Assembly: GCA_027450165.1 (NCBI GenBank)
Contig: DAIDKE010000001.1
Coordinates: forward strand, 70,373 to 134,372
Direction: 5' to 3'
Length of the DNA: 64,000 nt
Origin: Candidatus Saccharimonadota bacterium
Lineage (GTDB): Bacteria > Patescibacteriota > Saccharimonadia > Saccharimonadales > Saccharimonadaceae
The position numbers and the translations under genes were made by a program. The notes below the pieces were generated by a model. The model did no database searches, was not told the origin of the DNA, and saw nothing but the letters and a program-made list of their open reading frames with translations. Each line of letters begins with the position of its first letter. Position 1 is the first letter of the stretch. Of this stretch, positions 25,380 to 31,158 are shown piece after piece.

Positions 25380-25841
25380 GTGAAGCAAACGCCGTATCAA
25401 GCACCAACTTTCACGTTGCCAAACGAATCGGGCAAAGCGGTTTCGCTGACTGATTTTAGCGGCAAGTGGGTGGTGCTGTACTTTTATCCAAAAGATGAAA
25501 CACCCGGCTGTACAACCGAAGCCTGCAGCATGCGCGATGCTCGTGACGGTTTAACCGACCTTGGTGCCGAAGTTATTGGTGTAAGTATGGACGATGCCGC
25601 CTCGCATGAAAAATTCAAAACTAAATACAATTTGAATTTCACATTGCTGACGGATAAAGACAGCAAAGTGCTCCGCGAATATGGTGCATGGGGCAAAAAG
25701 ATGTTTGGCCGCGAGGGAATCTTGCGCAAAACGTTCATCATCAACCCCGAGGGTCAAGTGGTCAAGGTTTATGGCCGCGTCACGCCGCTTGGGCATGGCG
25801 ACCAGGTCATAGCTGAGCTTAAGCAGCTCCAGCGTCTGTAA
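25380..25841 (+). CDS. bcp: thiol peroxidase Bcp/PrxQ-type peroxiredoxin
   Basis: 153 aa with a GTG start. Active-site motif YFYPKDETPGCTTEAC. Confidence 0.85.
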   Translation: MKQTPYQAPTFTLPNESGKAVSLTDFSGKWVVLYFYPKDETPGCTTEACSMRDARDGLTDLGAEVIGVSMDDAASHEKFKTKYNLNFTLLTDKDSKVLREYGAWGKKMFGREGILRKTFIINPEGQVVKVYGRVTPLGHGDQVIAELKQLQRL

Positions 25842-25845
25842 TTGT

Positions 25846-25922
25846 CGGGGTGTAGCGCAGCTCGGTAGCGCGCGCCGTTCGGGACGGCGAGGTCATGGGT
25901 TCAAATCCCGTCACCCCGACCA
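25846..25922 (+). tRNA. tRNA-Pro(CGG), CCA encoded
   Basis: CGGGGTGTAGCGCAGCTCGGTAGCGCGCGCCGTTCGGGACGGCGAGGTCATGGGTTCAAATCCCGTCACCCCGACCA. Anticodon loop TTCGGGA. Confidence 0.9.
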
Positions 25923-25933
25923 AGATTTTTTGT

Positions 25934-26458
25934 ATGACAGTCACTGTTGAACAAACACACACAATCGAAACTAAACCTGCAACAAACGGTGACGGCCTTG
26001 AAGCTGTCGCAGTTTTTGAATATGGCGGTAAGCACGGACTCATGGATTTGATCCAGCGCAGTGTTGCCCGAACACTTGACCTGCGTGGCGCCGACCAAGC
26101 CAAGACTTTTGTCGAAATCTTAGATAATTACCCAGATCCAGCCGAGCGGCAACGCAAGATCGAAGAAGTCGGCGGACAATTCGATGAGGCGCTGGTTAAT
26201 TTTGTAGCTTGCTCAATGCTTGCTAGCCGACGGCCCAAAACCATTATTCGGGCTAGTAGTAGCGAAGGTTTTGACGGTTACCTGCCATGGCAAACCACCC
26301 TAGATGAACGACTGAAAGCCATGGCGGATTACGGCCTGCAAGGACTACAGGTTGTGGTTGAAAGATTTACACCGGATACCGACAACGTATTGACTATACC
26401 GACCCAAAGAAAGAGCAACGGTCTCCCTGACGATCAAGAGCTTGAACTAAGCGCATAA
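25934..26458 (+). CDS. hypothetical protein (174 aa)
   Basis: Start moved to MTVTVEQ, because the track ORF start (25895) lies inside tRNA-Pro(CGG). No motif recognised. Confidence 0.45.
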   Translation: MTVTVEQTHTIETKPATNGDGLEAVAVFEYGGKHGLMDLIQRSVARTLDLRGADQAKTFVEILDNYPDPAERQRKIEEVGGQFDEALVNFVACSMLASRRPKTIIRASSSEGFDGYLPWQTTLDERLKAMADYGLQGLQVVVERFTPDTDNVLTIPTQRKSNGLPDDQELELSA

Positions 26459-27675
26459 CAGGCGTGTTTGCCTAAAAACTTTAGCAAAATATGATTGAGT
26501 CGGCTAGCGATTGGTAAGCCGGTTAAATCATCTTTGACCAACATATGTTCTTCGTCCAAATCATCGCCGTAGCCGTACCATTTAAAGATAAATTCCTCGC
26601 TAAAATCGGCCGCCACTTCCGGCTTCTCTTCATCCGCGATAACAGCCTCTTGATCTATTAGTTCTTCAACGGAACGAACTGTCGACTCAATCCCCAACTC
26701 CGCGTCCAATTCATTATCTTCGAACACATAGTCATCGACCGGTTCACTCTCCGCCGCTTCAGCCGCCTGTTCGTCTTCACCGAATTCAACAACCTTAATA
26801 ACATCGCTTTGTGCTTCACTGTTTTGGATTGTGATCAAAACATCTTCCGGTGTCTCATCGTCTACTACCGTCTCGACAACAAGCTCTGTCAGACTAACTT
26901 TTGGCGCGGCGGTAACATATTCTTCACTCACTTCAGGCTCCGGCGCTAGCACTACTTCTGGCTCGAGTTGGGGCTCTGGCTGCAATTGCTGCGGCTCAAC
27001 AATATCATCGCTCAAGGCTAGCTCTTTAAGATTAGTTTGGATAGCCGGCTCTTTCGCATCGGTGACTGGATCCGCCTCAAACTCTTCGTGGACAGCCTCT
27101 AGCTTAATCTCCGCAACAACTTCGACCGGTGATGGTTTTACTGGCGTCAGAACCTCAACTGGCGCCGCTTCGTCGACAATCGTGACTGCAACCGGCTCCT
27201 CTACCGGTAACTCGTCTATATGAACCTCGTTCACAATCGGCTGACGCAAATTTTGCGCCACCACCACCTCAACGCTATCGTCGAGCAACTCACGCAGATA
27301 CGAACGTGGCTCTGGTGCTTCTTGCTCGACTACGACCGGCTGCGCTATTTCGGATTTAGTCTCCGGCGCAGAATCCACAGCCTGAGTTTCGTCGGTTACT
27401 ATAATTTCTTCTTCGGCCGAGACCAATGTTATGTCAAAATCACCCAAATCATGGGTTACCGGCGTTTCTACTTCAGCGCTCCGGGCACTCGGACAAAAAT
27501 TAACCAGTGGACAGCCGGCGCACAAAATCGCCGCGCAGCCAATCGCCCGCTGGCTTAGCGGACTCTCTGCTTCGGCCGCAGCTTCCACCGCCTTAACTTC
27601 TTCGGCGGTAGCAAGGTTCTCATCTACCGACGCAACTTCGATATCGGTCAGCCGCTCTAGAGTTATCTCGCTCAT
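26434..27675 (-). CDS. highly acidic E/V/P/D-rich protein with N-terminal CX5CX2CX5C motif
   Basis: 413 aa from the ATG at 27675, which lies 2 nt after the stop of the upstream flavoprotein gene. Motif GCAAILCAGCPLVNFCPSA, followed by a long low-complexity acidic region. Confidence 0.55.
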   Translation of the reverse strand: MSEITLERLTDIEVASVDENLATAEEVKAVEAAAEAESPLSQRAIGCAAILCAGCPLVNFCPSARSAEVETPVTHDLGDFDITLVSAEEEIIVTDETQAVDSAPETKSEIAQPVVVEQEAPEPRSYLRELLDDSVEVVVAQNLRQPIVNEVHIDELPVEEPVAVTIVDEAAPVEVLTPVKPSPVEVVAEIKLEAVHEEFEADPVTDAKEPAIQTNLKELALSDDIVEPQQLQPEPQLEPEVVLAPEPEVSEEYVTAAPKVSLTELVVETVVDDETPEDVLITIQNSEAQSDVIKVVEFGEDEQAAEAAESEPVDDYVFEDNELDAELGIESTVRSVEELIDQEAVIADEEKPEVAADFSEEFIFKWYGYGDDLDEEHMLVKDDLTGLPIASRLNHILLKFLGKHACYALSSSS

Positions 27676-27677
27676 CG

Positions 27678-28367
27678 CTAAGCCGCTCCAAAAAATGTCT
27701 CGGTTGTAATCTGGTCGCTCGACACGCCGCAATCGACCAACTGCCGCCACATCGACTTTACAAAATCAGCCGAGCCGCAAACATAAAAACAATGCGTATC
27801 TTTGTGACTGACGGCGTCTTTTAAAATATCGATTCGCCGGTGCTTAGCGTCACTAGCGCCTGGCGCCCGGGTAATAAAATGATCAACCACAAAATTATCG
27901 TTCGCATCCGCCAGCGCTTGTAGCTCCCGGCCAAAAACCACGTCGCCCGGCGTGCGGTTACTATATAACAAACGGATTGGCCGGCCGGTTTGACGCATAG
28001 TCTCGTCTTGAATAACACTCCAAATTGGCGAAATGCCGGTTCCGGCAGCAATCGCTAAAATCGGTTCATCATCAAAAGCGTTGAACGATCCATACGGCTG
28101 GCTAATGGTCAGCTCTTCGCCAACTTTCAGCTCATGGAGCTTGCCCGAAAACAGGCCAATTTTCTTGACCGTAATCGTCGATTCGACCGCCCCGGGCACG
28201 CTCGACAAACTATAGGCCTTGCCCTCGGTCACATCGGTATCATCAAAATAAACTGTTATATACTGCCCCGCCCGATGCGTTAGCGCCTCGCCGTCCACCT
28301 TAAAACCAATCGTCACGGTATCTGGCGTATTGATAGTTCGACTGGTGATAACGGCTGTTTGCTTCAT
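27678..28367 (-). CDS. FNR-like FAD/NAD(P)-binding oxidoreductase
   Basis: 229 aa. FAD motif RAGQYITVYF...KAYSLSS. NAD(P) motif LAIAAGTGISPIWSV, plus YVCGS. 4-nt overlap with nrdG. Confidence 0.75.
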   Translation of the reverse strand: MKQTAVITSRTINTPDTVTIGFKVDGEALTHRAGQYITVYFDDTDVTEGKAYSLSSVPGAVESTITVKKIGLFSGKLHELKVGEELTISQPYGSFNAFDDEPILAIAAGTGISPIWSVIQDETMRQTGRPIRLLYSNRTPGDVVFGRELQALADANDNFVVDHFITRAPGASDAKHRRIDILKDAVSHKDTHCFYVCGSADFVKSMWRQLVDCGVSSDQITTETFFGAA

Positions 28368-29053
28368 CGCACTAAACAGTAATCAACGTACTGCTCCATT
28401 TGTTTACGGATATCTTCGAATTCCTCGTCGCTATAAGTAGTTTCGCGCCGAAAAGCCGGGCTTAAAGTTCGACCGCTGCGAAACTTTTGCAGTGCATAAC
28501 GCGACGCGCCGCGCAGCATCTCGCCAATGGCCTTAAAATCATCAACCGGAATCTGCGACTTCACAACCGTGGTGCGAAACTCATAATCAACACCCGATTT
28601 TTTAATCATCTCAATACTGCGCATAATCGCATCCATATCGATTGGGTAGGCAGCGATCATTTGGTATGAATCTGGCGTGCCCTTAATATCCATCGACACA
28701 TAATCGAGCAGCTTATCGTCGTACATCTGCCGCAGCATGTCCGGGTGCGTGCCATTGGTGTCTAATTTAATCGTAAAACCAAGCTGCTTGATGCTAGCAA
28801 TCAGCTGCGGCAGGTCGTCGTGAACTGTCGGCTCACCACCGCTAATCACCACACCCTCCAGTTTGCCGACGCGCGTCGCCAAAAAAGCTAGCACGTCGTC
28901 AACCGGAATGGCGTCTCCGTAGCGTTCTGGCAAGACAAGTTCAGGATTGTGGCAGTAGCCGCAACGCATATTACAGCCAACTGTGAAAATCACTGCACTG
29001 GCCTTGCCCGGGTAGTCAATTAAAGATACTTTTTGAACGCCGCCGATTCTCAT
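28364..29053 (-). CDS. nrdG: anaerobic ribonucleoside-triphosphate reductase activating protein (radical SAM)
   Basis: 229 aa. Radical-SAM cluster CNMRCGYCHNPE and SAM motif VVISGGEP. 4-nt overlap with nrdD. Confidence 0.85.
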   Translation of the reverse strand: MRIGGVQKVSLIDYPGKASAVIFTVGCNMRCGYCHNPELVLPERYGDAIPVDDVLAFLATRVGKLEGVVISGGEPTVHDDLPQLIASIKQLGFTIKLDTNGTHPDMLRQMYDDKLLDYVSMDIKGTPDSYQMIAAYPIDMDAIMRSIEMIKKSGVDYEFRTTVVKSQIPVDDFKAIGEMLRGASRYALQKFRSGRTLSPAFRRETTYSDEEFEDIRKQMEQYVDYCLVR

Positions 29054-31158
29054 AGCGCCTTAACGCGTGCTCGATCGACATCGATCTTCTTGCGCATATC
29101 AAACTCGGCACGTTTGCCGTTGTTCCAGCGGTGCGTAGGGGTTAGGAAGCCAACCACACGCGAGTAAACTTCACAGACTTCTTCACACTTCGGACAGAAT
29201 TCGTGTTCACCAGCCAAGTAGCCATGGTTCTTGCAGATACTAAAGCTTGGACTAAACGTAAAGTATGGCAAGCGGTAGTTAGTACAAACCGTTCGGACTA
29301 GCTTCTTCAGAATTTGCGGATCATTGATGCGCTCACCCAAGAAGAAGTGAATCACGGTGCCACCGGTGTACTTGGTCTGTAGTTCGTCTTGTAGTTCCAA
29401 AAGCTCAAACAAGTCATCGGTAAAGTTAACCGGCAGGTGAGTCGAGTTGGTGTAAAACGGCGCCGGCACATCTTTACCAATGCCGTTGGCAAAGTGCGCT
29501 TCAGGAAAGTCTTTTTGGTCGATCTGCGCCAAACGGTAAGTCGTACCCTCGGCTGGTGTCGCCTCAAGGTTATAGTTGTTGCCTGTTTCTTCCTGGAATT
29601 CAATCAGCTTGTCGCGCATGTAGTCCAGCACTTCTTCGGCAAACTTACGACCTTCATCGCTACCAATCGTTGTATCAAGCAGATTTTCGATCGCTTCGTT
29701 CATACCGACCAAACCAATGGTTGAGAAGTGATTCTTCCAATATTGGTCAAAGCCTTGCTTGATGTTGCGCAGATAGTACTTGGTGTACGGGTACAGCCCG
29801 GCGTCGGTCAATCGTTCCAAAGTTTTGCGCTTGATCTCTAGGCTCTCTTTGGCCATTTCCATCAAATCGGTCAGGCCGGCCATGAACTCTTCTTTGTTGT
29901 GTGCTTTCAGAGCTAAGCGCGGCAGGTTAATTGTTACTACGCCCACCGAACCGGTCATTGGGTTGGCGCCGAACAAACCACCGCCGCGGTATTCCAACTT
30001 GCGGTTGTCGATGCGCAAACGGCAGCACATCGAACGAGCATCCTCTGGGTTCATGTCGCTGTTAACGAAGTTCGAGAAGTACGGAATACCATATTTAGCC
30101 GAAGCTTCCCAAAGATTCTCAACCACCGGGTTATCCCAATCAAAATCCTTGGTAATGTTGTAGGTTGGAATTGGGAAGGTAAAGACACGGCCAGTCGAGT
30201 CACCTTCTACCATCACTTCGAGCAGCGCCTTGTTAAAGACATTCATCTCTTTTTGGTAGTCGCCGTAGTTGGTCTCTTGCATTTCACCGCCAATAATCAC
30301 CGGAATGCCAGCAAAGTATTCTGGCGGGGTCAAATCGAGCGTAATGTTGGTAAACGGTGTCTGAAAACCAACTCGTGTTGGCACGTTGACGTTAAAGATA
30401 AACTCCTGCAACGCCTGCTTGACCTCTTTGTGTGTCAGCCCGTCAGCGCGGATAAACGGCGCCAGTAAAGTATCGAAGTTCGAAAAAGCCTGTGCGCCAG
30501 CCGCTTCGCCCTGCAAGGTGTAAAAGAAGTTGACGATTTGACCCAGCGCCGAGCGTAAGTGCCTGGCTGGCTTACTGGAAATCTTGCCCTGAACACCGGT
30601 AAAGCCCTCACGTAGCAGGTCCATTAAGTCCCAGCCAACGCAGTAAACCGACAGCAAGTTCAAGTCATGAATATGGAAATCACCAGCCCGGTGTGCATCG
30701 CCAATTTCTTTAGGATAAATCTTGTCCAGCCAGTAATTCTTGCTGACCTCTGACGAAATGTAATTGTTCAGCCCCTGCAGCGAATAGCCCATATTGGAGT
30801 TTTCTTTGACCTTCCAGTCCAGATTGCCCAAATATGAGTCAACCAAATCAATCTGCATATTGCTGGTGATGTCACGTAGACGCTGGTGCTGGTCGCGGTA
30901 AAGAATGTAAGCCTTAGCCGTCTTGTTGTAGGTCGAGTTGATGAGTACATTTTCAGCAATATCCTGAATCTGTTCGACCGTCGGTACTTTTTCGGTCAGT
31001 TCGGTCTCGGCGCGCGAAATCACTTTATTCGCCAAACGCTTGGCGGTTGTTTCGTTGAATTCCCCTGTTGCCTCGCCGGCTTTGATCAATGCCGCTTCGA
31101 TTTTTGCGGGATCGAATTTGACGCGACGTCCGTCGCGCTTTTTGATTGAGTTGTACAT
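29050..31158 (-). CDS. nrdD: anaerobic ribonucleoside-triphosphate reductase (class III), with ATP-cone
   Basis: 702 aa. ATP-cone at the N-terminus (IKKRDGRRVKFDPAKI). C-terminal Zn-ribbon cysteines (CKNHGY...CPKCEEVC) and a glycyl-radical-like RVVGFLT. AAGGGGG SD upstream. Confidence 0.9.
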   Translation of the reverse strand: MYNSIKKRDGRRVKFDPAKIEAALIKAGEATGEFNETTAKRLANKVISRAETELTEKVPTVEQIQDIAENVLINSTYNKTAKAYILYRDQHQRLRDITSNMQIDLVDSYLGNLDWKVKENSNMGYSLQGLNNYISSEVSKNYWLDKIYPKEIGDAHRAGDFHIHDLNLLSVYCVGWDLMDLLREGFTGVQGKISSKPARHLRSALGQIVNFFYTLQGEAAGAQAFSNFDTLLAPFIRADGLTHKEVKQALQEFIFNVNVPTRVGFQTPFTNITLDLTPPEYFAGIPVIIGGEMQETNYGDYQKEMNVFNKALLEVMVEGDSTGRVFTFPIPTYNITKDFDWDNPVVENLWEASAKYGIPYFSNFVNSDMNPEDARSMCCRLRIDNRKLEYRGGGLFGANPMTGSVGVVTINLPRLALKAHNKEEFMAGLTDLMEMAKESLEIKRKTLERLTDAGLYPYTKYYLRNIKQGFDQYWKNHFSTIGLVGMNEAIENLLDTTIGSDEGRKFAEEVLDYMRDKLIEFQEETGNNYNLEATPAEGTTYRLAQIDQKDFPEAHFANGIGKDVPAPFYTNSTHLPVNFTDDLFELLELQDELQTKYTGGTVIHFFLGERINDPQILKKLVRTVCTNYRLPYFTFSPSFSICKNHGYLAGEHEFCPKCEEVCEVYSRVVGFLTPTHRWNNGKRAEFDMRKKIDVDRARVKAL

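Follow-up and report, generated by a model that had tools for sequence, protein, structure and literature searches.

We describe a four-gene operon for a class III ribonucleotide reductase (RNR) in a 64,000-nucleotide stretch of DNA from Candidatus Saccharimonadota bacterium (assembly GCA_027450165.1, contig DAIDKE010000001.1); this whole stretch is referred to as the window. In addition to nrdD and nrdG, which encode the catalytic subunit and its radical S-adenosylmethionine (SAM) activase, the operon contains genes for an FNR-like flavoprotein and for a protein with a four-cysteine motif (hereafter, Cys4). We consider it probable that the four genes form one cassette, in which an NAD(P)H-driven electron supply and a metal-centre partner are dedicated to the [4Fe-4S] cluster of NrdG. 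In the proposed mechanism, the FNR-fold flavoprotein would oxidise NAD(P)H and pass single electrons to an iron or iron-sulfur centre, standing in for the ferredoxin/flavodoxin route that is missing from these genomes, and the Cys4 module would hold a metal centre through CxxCPxxxxC(+C). Together the two proteins would keep the NrdG [4Fe-4S] cluster present and reduced (1+), and SAM cleavage by the reduced cluster would generate the glycyl radical of NrdD. Electrons would flow from the FNR-like protein towards NrdG, with Cys4 acting either as a carrier or as a cluster or iron donor. The chances seem slightly better than even that they serve the reductive activation of NrdG, and slightly under even that they serve cluster assembly or repair; activation and assembly may also both be served. 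No description of this module was found in the literature that we searched.

The four genes are tightly packed on the minus strand. As read from the window sequence, the nrdD/nrdG and nrdG/FNR junctions are 4-nt ATGA start-stop overlaps, an arrangement of translationally coupled genes, and the stop codon of the FNR-like gene is separated from the Cys4 start codon by a 2-nt gap (TAG-CG-ATG). A preliminary description of this DNA, made from its letters and open reading frames (ORFs), had reported the same four genes, overlaps and gap, and all of them were found where it placed them. The longest Cys4 ORF begins at a GTG codon at position 27750 (438 aa) and overlaps the FNR-like gene; however, translation more likely begins at the ATG at 27675, which agrees with both the 'MSE...' N-termini of the protein family and the tight spacing in related loci. 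No promoter-like or terminator-like site inside the operon exceeded the expectation from shuffled sequence. A chance juxtaposition of the four genes is ruled out, since the arrangement recurs in dozens of species.

To describe the genomic context of the FNR-like gene, one genome per GTDB species was scanned and 229 relatives of its product were found; the locus counts given here refer to the best 80 of these. In 78 of the 80 loci the FNR-like gene comes immediately after nrdD and/or nrdG on the same strand (in L001, L002 and L045 nrdD is cut off by a contig end). The same pattern occurs in G256, a genome from another genus of the same family, and in three independent metagenome contigs. The contigs of the remaining two loci (L061 and L065) end ∼1.1 kb upstream of the FNR-like gene, within nifS-nifU and with nifU visible, and are truncated copies of the nrdD-nrdG-nifS-nifU-FNR arrangement described below. 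Members of the FNR family accompanied by nifSU away from nrdDG were found in none of the 80 loci. The FNR-like gene thus co-occurs with nrdDG in every informative locus, and its product is the constant partner of nrdDG.

By comparing the genes that flank the FNR-like gene, we classified the loci into three types. Type A, with 62 loci including that of the window, has the order nrdD-nrdG-FNR-Cys4; in these loci the Cys4 gene starts between -1 and +17 nt from the FNR stop codon, and it is also present in three metagenome contexts. Type B comprises 15 loci with the order nrdD-nrdG-nifS-nifU-FNR and without a Cys4 gene, in which the FNR-like gene often overlaps nifU; the genomes are labelled Nomurabacteria, Parcubacteria, Patescibacteria or Saccharibacteria. 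Type C is represented by one locus (L016:4899-8166, G316:C42), in which a convergent sufU-sufS-sufD-sufB cluster comes after nrdD-nrdG-FNR. The remaining two loci lack a downstream flank. According to whole-genome searches, NifU_N is present in none of 34 type A genomes and in all 15 type B genomes, always within the operon, as well as in the type C genome (G316); the latter alone has SufBD, which adjoins the FNR-like gene there. Cys4 and NifU/SUF are therefore mutually exclusive: the slot next to the FNR-like gene holds one of them, never two. Among the carriers of the cassette are cultivated lineages of Saccharibacteria, including Nanosynbacter (L036).

The genome to which the window belongs (G000) is 794 kb long, consists of seven contigs, with the window on contig C1, and is 99.5% complete. 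It encodes no flavodoxin (PF00258), no protein with the CxxCxxCxxxC(P) motif and no soluble reductase of the Fpr type, and a plant-type ferredoxin motif is absent except in the Cys4 protein and in the zinc site of a deaminase. The only other FNR-domain proteins in this genome are two components of membrane systems, and an initial assumption that the FNR-like protein is the sole FNR-fold protein was accordingly dropped. The inventory of iron-sulfur cluster assembly genes is equally short. The sole cysteine desulfurase (NifS-like, 384 aa) adjoins mnmA, which encodes a tRNA 2-thiouridylase (G000:C1:42513-45446), and neither NifU_N (at E<=1), nor SufBD, nor any other Fe-S scaffold gene was found in the genome. 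A thioredoxin reductase (CATCD) and an NrdH-like glutaredoxin (CVQC) are encoded.

The two membrane FNR-domain proteins belong to separate electron-transfer gene sets that lie outside the window (C1:15419-18142 and C1:194482-197241). In one set, an FNR module is fused to an RnfD/NqrB-like transmembrane domain, and the neighbouring genes encode ApbE and an FMN_bind protein. In the other, the FNR module carries a C-terminal transmembrane anchor and adjoins ApbE and a multi-pass membrane protein in which histidines are conserved. Both sets may perform outward-directed, flavin-based electron transfer in a genome that otherwise has hardly any redox proteins.

The distribution of electron carriers was analyzed in an evenly drawn sample of 301 Patescibacteria genomes, of which 92 are NrdG-positive and 18 belong to Saccharimonadia; the screen for carriers consisted of one 4Fe-4S motif and PF00258. 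Within this sample the FNR family is confined to G000 and G256, and no other genome of the 18 Saccharimonadia is NrdG-positive. Of the other 90 NrdG-positive Patescibacteria, 72 have a 4Fe-4S ferredoxin motif, 19 have a flavodoxin and 78 (86%) have either one. By comparison, in a set of 50 FNR-positive genomes the ferredoxin motif matched in 7, against 6 for a reversed-pattern control, with only one of the 7 looking real, and flavodoxin was found in three. The contrast is strong by Fisher's test (p ∼1e-14), a figure that overstates the evidence because the genomes are related. Flavodoxin alone was rejected as a discriminator, as it is equally frequent in NrdG-positive (19/90) and NrdG-negative Patescibacteria, and the ferredoxin motif was added.

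Of 68 relatives, 63 have a class I or class II RNR, among them every NrdG-negative Saccharimonadia genome except one, and the genome under study also has nrdA and nrdB. The cassette is thus an add-on to an existing RNR. McLean et al. (PMC7427843) described nrdD as having been gained by mammal-associated Saccharibacteria for low-oxygen niches, and its phylogeny as discordant; the two extra genes of the cassette are not mentioned in that study. A recipient without ferredoxin, flavodoxin and scaffold would need an incoming cassette to bring its own support, and the gene content of the cassette fits this expectation. No relative of the FNR-like protein was found in viral contigs.

A separate observation concerns the class I genes of the same genome. 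Between nrdA (C1:272946-275420) and nrdB (C1:275683-276678) lies an acidic 59-aa ORF ending in ...TMCEGCQ (C1:275473-275652), and the NrdA protein itself ends without the usual C-terminal cysteine pair. This ORF might be a redox tail that has split off from the class I RNR, and its CEGC is similar to the CEGCP seen in many Cys4 family members.

The assignments of nrdD, with its ATP-cone, and of nrdG, as a radical-SAM gene, in the preliminary description agree with the curated family models, as both proteins score above the respective cut-offs. NrdD matches PF13597 (1.3e-201), the ATP-cone (7.7e-23), NF006126 (1069 bits against a cut-off of 548) and TIGR02487 (584 against 326), and its relatives in the PDB include 8p23, 4coi and 1h78. 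The protein contains an SMCCR motif (Cys378/379), the glycyl-radical loop RVVGFL and a C-terminal Zn-Cys cluster (C642/C655/C658/C662). The family score, the loop and the Zn-Cys cluster identify it as a class III RNR catalytic subunit, and the SCCR motif is a feature of the T. maritima type of NrdD (PMC4493059). NrdG belongs to TIGR02495 (NrdG2; 206.5 bits against a cut-off of 131.15) and PF04055 (1.5e-23), and the ligands of its [4Fe-4S] cluster, as judged by the motif CNMRCGYC, are C27-x3-C31-x2-C34. This is the sole CxxxCxxC among ∼855 genes called in the genome, i.e., the only radical-SAM motif. An apparent NrdG fusion in G202 (a 440-aa open frame) was discarded as an artefactual upstream extension in GC-rich DNA.

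The FNR-like protein has the sequence features of the FNR superfamily: PF00970 and PF00175 domains, the R/K-x-Y-S and GxGxxP motifs, a CG pair and a C-terminal aromatic residue. The corresponding segments are GKAYSLSS (residues 49-56), AAGTGISP (107-114, with GTGISP at 109-114), CG (197-198) and a C-terminal TETFF (222-226). In an alignment of the family (A1), residues G49, A51, Y52, S53, G109, G111, P114, C197 and G198 are invariant, and K50, F225 and F226 are nearly invariant. The AlphaFold2 model is of high confidence (predicted local distance difference test, pLDDT, 93.5; predicted template modelling score, pTM, 0.89). When compared with the PDB by Foldseek, it gave 314 matches at E<=1e-3 with top TM-scores of 0.86-0.87, and TM-scores of 0.82-0.87 were obtained with the FAD/NAD domain of Hmp, BenC, NqrF, E. 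coli Fpr (1fdr, 0.82) and yeast Cbr1 (7rom, 0.84); in structure the protein is no farther from Fpr and Cbr1 than from other members. Domains, motifs and predicted fold therefore agree with the earlier proposal of a 229-aa FNR-like FAD/NAD(P) oxidoreductase bearing KAYSLSS and GTGISP. With all catalytic motifs kept and a confidently modelled FNR fold, the protein appears to be an intact enzyme, and it is predicted to bind flavin.

The FNR-like protein reaches the cut-off of no curated NCBIfam family; its best score is with Hmp (102 bits against 432). Membership in several known families was considered and rejected. With PyrK (NF000796) the score is 67.8 bits against 224, and the C-terminal 2Fe-2S cysteine cluster is absent, as the protein ends with TETFFGAA. 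With Fpr (NF008178) it is 24.3 bits against 390, and neither PF00258 nor a ferredoxin motif occurs in the genome. Hmp and BenC are also excluded, with scores far under their cut-offs. A grouping with PyrK or another pathway-specific reductase, which the preliminary description had named as evidence that would count against a dedicated module, is thus not borne out. Of the three cysteines of the protein, C197 alone is conserved. In a search of 5.8 billion proteins, ∼100 clusters of orthologs were identified (221-247 aa, 38-80% identity), after which the scores fall abruptly from 132 to 84 bits, which marks a distinct family. Beyond this drop, some out-group proteins (252-380 aa) bear a fused 2Fe-2S domain; since these are among the nearest out-group sequences, an Fe-S acceptor is implied for the FNR-like protein as well.

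The Cys4 protein has no match in Pfam, NCBIfam or the PDB. It has a pI of 4.05 and contains 24.5% D+E. Its 328-aa tail, composed of 17.7% E, 13.4% V, 8.2% D and 7.3% P, corresponds to the extremely acidic E/V/P/D-rich tail of ∼330 aa noted before; the tail is indeed present, but it is lineage-specific and absent from the short members of the family, which have basic or neutral linkers instead. The cysteine motif had been written as CX5CX2CX5C, and this needs correction, as the actual spacing is C47-x4-C52-x2-C55-x5-C61. A tblastn search with the acidic protein reached only L001 and L003 and gave an impression of poor conservation, which was abandoned when the downstream ORFs of other loci were read for the motif and a family became visible. 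In databases it is represented by 41 clusters, all of them unnamed or 'hypothetical' and without a Pfam domain.

The cysteine motif is conserved in homologs: among 100 family sequences, the core CxxC-x5/6-C is present in 94 and the second cysteine is followed by proline in 88. A fourth cysteine is found in nearly all of them, either 2-10 residues upstream of the core (17/100, as in the window) or 5-12 residues downstream of it (68/100, as in Nanosynbacter). Four conserved cysteines, one of them mobile in position, fit metal ligation better than a dithiol redox pair. Judging from this pattern, the Cys4 module would bind a metal centre, for which a labile cluster ([4Fe-4S] or [2Fe-2S]) or a single Fe is the likeliest candidate. 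The family also shares the short motif (S)Y(L)xELLDDSxxxV(V)A, with D76 invariant in its alignment (A4), which is probably a docking element. The linker between this motif and a C-terminal helix varies widely: long forms have an acidic linker, whereas that of the short ones (135-196 aa) is basic or neutral, and the total length ranges from 135 to 767 aa. The helix itself is found in all members, and AlphaFold2 predicts a helix at the equivalent place. In some long forms (L002, L069, L071 and L082, the latter from G256) it resembles a transmembrane segment of the tail-anchor type (e.g., ...LLGVVAVFTVVRRR), whereas in short forms it is amphipathic, of a membrane-targeting type, with a basic end (...VADVIMDMFGVNSIKKARAKK). 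The Cys4 protein may thus be tethered to the membrane.

An AlphaFold2 model of a 152-aa Cys4 member, built from a 35-sequence alignment, has a pLDDT of 61.6, and only the LLDD segment is confident (78-93). This model gave no Foldseek match and hence no ferredoxin-fold match, and the A4 profile detected no PDB chain at E<=10. The ferredoxin motif CxxCxxCxxxCP is absent from the Cys4 protein. Neither does the protein match NifU/IscU (PF01592), so its likeness to a scaffold is positional and functional only.

Table 1. Positions in the window of the four operon genes and of the segments distinguished within the Cys4 protein.
Feature	Position	Strand	Description
nrdD	29050..31158	-	702 aa; ATP-cone at N-terminus; PF13597, NF006126
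nrdG	28364..29053	-	229 aa; radical-SAM activase of NrdD; TIGR02495, PF04055
FNR-like gene	27678..28367	-	229 aa; PF00970 + PF00175; no fused Fe-S or haem domain
Cys4 gene	26434..27675	-	413 aa counted from ATG; family without a name, restricted to this operon position
Putative metal-binding motif of Cys4, CAAILCAGCPLVNFC	27493..27537	-	Cys47, 52, 55, 61; C-x4-C-x2-C-x5-C
Short linear motif of Cys4, RSYLRELLDDSVEVVVAQ	27253..27306	-	residues 124-141; aligns across long and short members
C-terminal amphipathic/hydrophobic helix of Cys4, LPIASRLNHILLKFLGKHACYAL	26449..26517	-	residues 387-409

Several genes near the operon deserve mention. A gene for a Bcp/AhpC-type peroxiredoxin is located within ∼1-2 kb of the cassette's 3' end both in the window (25380-25841, plus strand) and in at least two related loci (L001:3024-3482 and L071:9375-9833); it may provide a linked oxidative-stress defence for the oxygen-sensitive RNR. 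A convergent 187-aa ORF (25895-26458, plus strand) shares 25 nt with the 3' end of the Cys4 gene. Since a homolog occupies the same position in L001 (2393-2929), this ORF is probably a genuine gene. In lineages with short Cys4 forms (L083, L085, L086 and many more, e.g., L009, L011 and L020), the Cys4 gene is followed by a conserved trio encoding a PAP2 phosphatase, a membrane protein of ∼165 aa and RmuC.

Among known systems, the closest working analog of the cassette, by comparison of their components, would be the Cbr1-Dph3 pair of yeast. In that system Cbr1, an NADH-cytochrome b5 reductase, and Dph3, a small acidic Cys4 iron protein, reduce and re-metallate the [4Fe-4S] cluster of the radical-SAM enzyme Dph1-Dph2; Dph3 gives electrons as well as an iron atom, and Dph3-like helpers were predicted for other radical-SAM enzymes (PMC8251694). 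Both systems combine an FNR-fold reductase (Cbr1, compared above) with an acidic Cys4 protein, and the ambiguity between carrier and donor is the same in both. However, there is no sequence relationship with Dph3/Kti11: the Cys4 family has neither zf-CSL nor any other Pfam match at E<=10 and no PDB profile match, its cysteine spacing and fold are different, and it possesses a long disordered linker and a C-terminal helix. The cassette is moreover bacterial, operon-linked and aimed at a glycyl-radical activase, and is thus a functional analog of the yeast pair rather than a member of the same family.

The Fpr-flavodoxin system of E. coli, which reduces NrdG and the PFL activase, is similar in its FNR-fold enzyme, in its use of NAD(P)H and in its target, the [4Fe-4S]2+ cluster of a glycyl-radical activase. 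In contrast to E. coli, the genome analyzed here lacks flavodoxin, as do all but 3 of the 50 FNR-positive genomes, and an unrelated Cys4 protein or an Fe-S scaffold serves as the partner; the cassette genes form a dedicated operon, while the E. coli system has general duties and its genes are unlinked. Small dedicated proteins that maintain a radical-generating cofactor are also familiar from class I RNRs, namely the YfaE ferredoxin (nrdAB operon), the NrdI flavodoxin (nrdHIEF) and Fre. The latter is, like the FNR-like protein, a minimal FNR-fold protein of similar size (matched as 1qfj). The class I helpers, however, serve the di-metal/tyrosyl cofactor of aerobic RNRs, whereas the FNR family tracks nrdDG and not nrdAB.

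An alternative is that the operon serves cluster assembly only. The FNR-like protein would then replace ferredoxin and ferredoxin reductase in a minimal Fe-S assembly line (NifS with NifU, SUF, or NifS with Cys4 as scaffold) and supply electrons either to reduce persulfide or to couple reductively the clusters meant for NrdG, with the activating electron coming from elsewhere. This is a serious rival, compatible with a cassette dedicated to the NrdG cluster, although in its exclusive form we regard it as somewhat unlikely. The ISC ferredoxin/reductase and minimal NifS-NifU (MIS-type) systems also need electrons for cluster synthesis, and the isc operon encodes its own ferredoxin. The position of the FNR-like gene directly after nifU, often overlapping it, in 15 loci, its proximity to sufU-sufS-sufD-sufB in L016 and the mutual exclusivity of Cys4 and NifU/SUF all point in the same direction. 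The systems differ in that the cassette has no ferredoxin intermediary, its FNR family is confined to nrdDG operons, and in Saccharibacteria Cys4 takes the place of the missing scaffold. Against assembly as the only role, the FNR family is never associated with nifSU apart from nrdDG in the 80 loci, and the FNR-like gene stays next to nrdG even where a complete SUF system, which carries its own flavin-dependent reduction, is present. NrdG would still need a reductant in the absence of ferredoxin and flavodoxin, and the FNR-like protein is the only soluble candidate.

Two other explanations would assign the extra proteins to something other than the NrdG cluster. It is very improbable, in our view, that the FNR-like protein and the CxxC-bearing Cys4 protein re-reduce the active site of NrdD at each turnover. 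A precedent exists in Methanosarcina barkeri, where Wei et al. reportedly found in 2015 that the class III RNR operon encodes an NrdH-like redoxin and a ferredoxin:disulfide reductase, i.e., its own electron-delivery proteins. That system, however, re-reduces NrdD at each turnover by dithiol chemistry and relies on ferredoxin, whereas the cassette contains no ferredoxin, thioredoxin fold or FTR-like CPC/CHC motifs. The SMCCR motif of NrdD is typical of the T. maritima/N. bacilliformis-type enzymes, which use a protein reductant rather than formate, and the reductant in T. maritima is not firmly identified (PMC4493059). On the other hand, FNR-fold enzymes do not have a redox-active disulfide, the mobile fourth cysteine fits metal ligation and not two dithiol pairs, the FNR-like gene occurs without Cys4 in 16 loci, and the genome already encodes the thioredoxin reductase and NrdH-like glutaredoxin mentioned above. 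Even harder to credit is a role of Cys4 as a WhiB-like O2/NO-sensing Fe-S regulator or as a membrane tether of the RNR, with the FNR-like protein either keeping its cluster reduced or being an unrelated housekeeping enzyme. The C-terminal helix is like a membrane-targeting or tail-anchor helix, Cys4 is mostly disordered with short conserved motifs, and its CxxCx5C spacing, with proline after the second cysteine, is the same as in the Wbl [4Fe-4S] proteins; this spacing also recurs in the cluster loop of Endo III. The resemblance to Wbl proteins put forward in the preliminary description does not extend beyond this spacing. Wbl proteins have the pattern C-x(14-22)-C-x2-C-x5-C with a G[VI]WGG turn, whereas the remaining cysteine of the Cys4 family lies 2-10 residues upstream or 5-16 residues downstream, and a WGG turn is found in none of the 100 family sequences. 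PF02467 (Whib) gave no match at E<=10 for the N-termini of six family members and none at E<=0.01 for the full protein, and the PDB profile search also had no match at E<=10, although structures of WhiB1 and WhiB7 exist. A conserved basic DNA-binding tail is absent, the architecture and genomic context are different, and the complementarity with NifU/SUF would be left without explanation.

Several observations weigh against the proposed dedication of the FNR-like protein and Cys4 to the NrdG cluster. An FNR flavin has a potential of ∼-300 to -350 mV by textbook values, from which reduction of a radical-SAM cluster would be thermodynamically uphill. In twelve of the 90 NrdG-positive, FNR-negative genomes (L088-L099) neither a ferredoxin motif nor a flavodoxin was found, and nrdDG has no accessory gene beside it, so NrdG is served otherwise in these genomes or the carrier screen is incomplete. 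The genome comparisons are phylogenetically non-independent, and the two membrane FNR-domain proteins of the genome under study could in principle supply electrons. The Cys4 module is not predicted to fold alone (pLDDT ∼55) and has no structural or profile match, while the cofactors, nucleotide specificity and partners of the cassette proteins are putative assignments made from sequence. Finally, the pair is not an obligatory two-step chain: 16 loci keep the FNR-like gene without Cys4 and have NifS-NifU or SUF instead, so that Cys4 cannot be indispensable for carrying electrons from the FNR-like protein to NrdG. Thus, of the electron-supply module for the class III RNR activase that was proposed earlier, the dedication to nrdDG is supported by synteny and by the missing carriers, an obligatory carrier role of Cys4 is not, and the function itself is hypothetical. 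For the same reason, namely that NifS-NifU or SUF replaces Cys4 in these 16 loci, a role of Cys4 as a cluster or iron donor or as a scaffold is at least as likely as that of a pure electron shuttle.

Radical-SAM enzymes need both a low-potential electron and an assembled [4Fe-4S] cluster, and the question addressed here is how these are supplied in bacteria with reduced genomes that lack carriers and a scaffold. The cassette is a self-contained, four-gene candidate answer that can be tested. Should Cys4 donate clusters or iron, it would supply a bacterial case of the 'Dph3-like' helpers predicted for radical-SAM enzymes (PMC8251694). A more far-reaching version, which we hold to be unlikely, is that Cys4 represents a new minimal donor or scaffold for Fe-S clusters or iron, consisting of a module of 15-25 residues on a largely disordered and maybe membrane-tethered protein, which together with the NifS-type desulfurase and the FNR-like protein builds, repairs and reduces the NrdG cluster. 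The setting for this would be bacteria without an ISC, SUF or NIF scaffold and without ferredoxin or flavodoxin, in which NrdG is the sole radical-SAM enzyme. If true, bacteria would have their own equivalent of Dph3/Cbr1, effectively an additional kind of Fe-S delivery system, and synthetic biology would gain a very small Fe-S module. If the whole cassette moves together, this would account for the functioning of an oxygen-sensitive enzyme in a recipient without supporting redox infrastructure.

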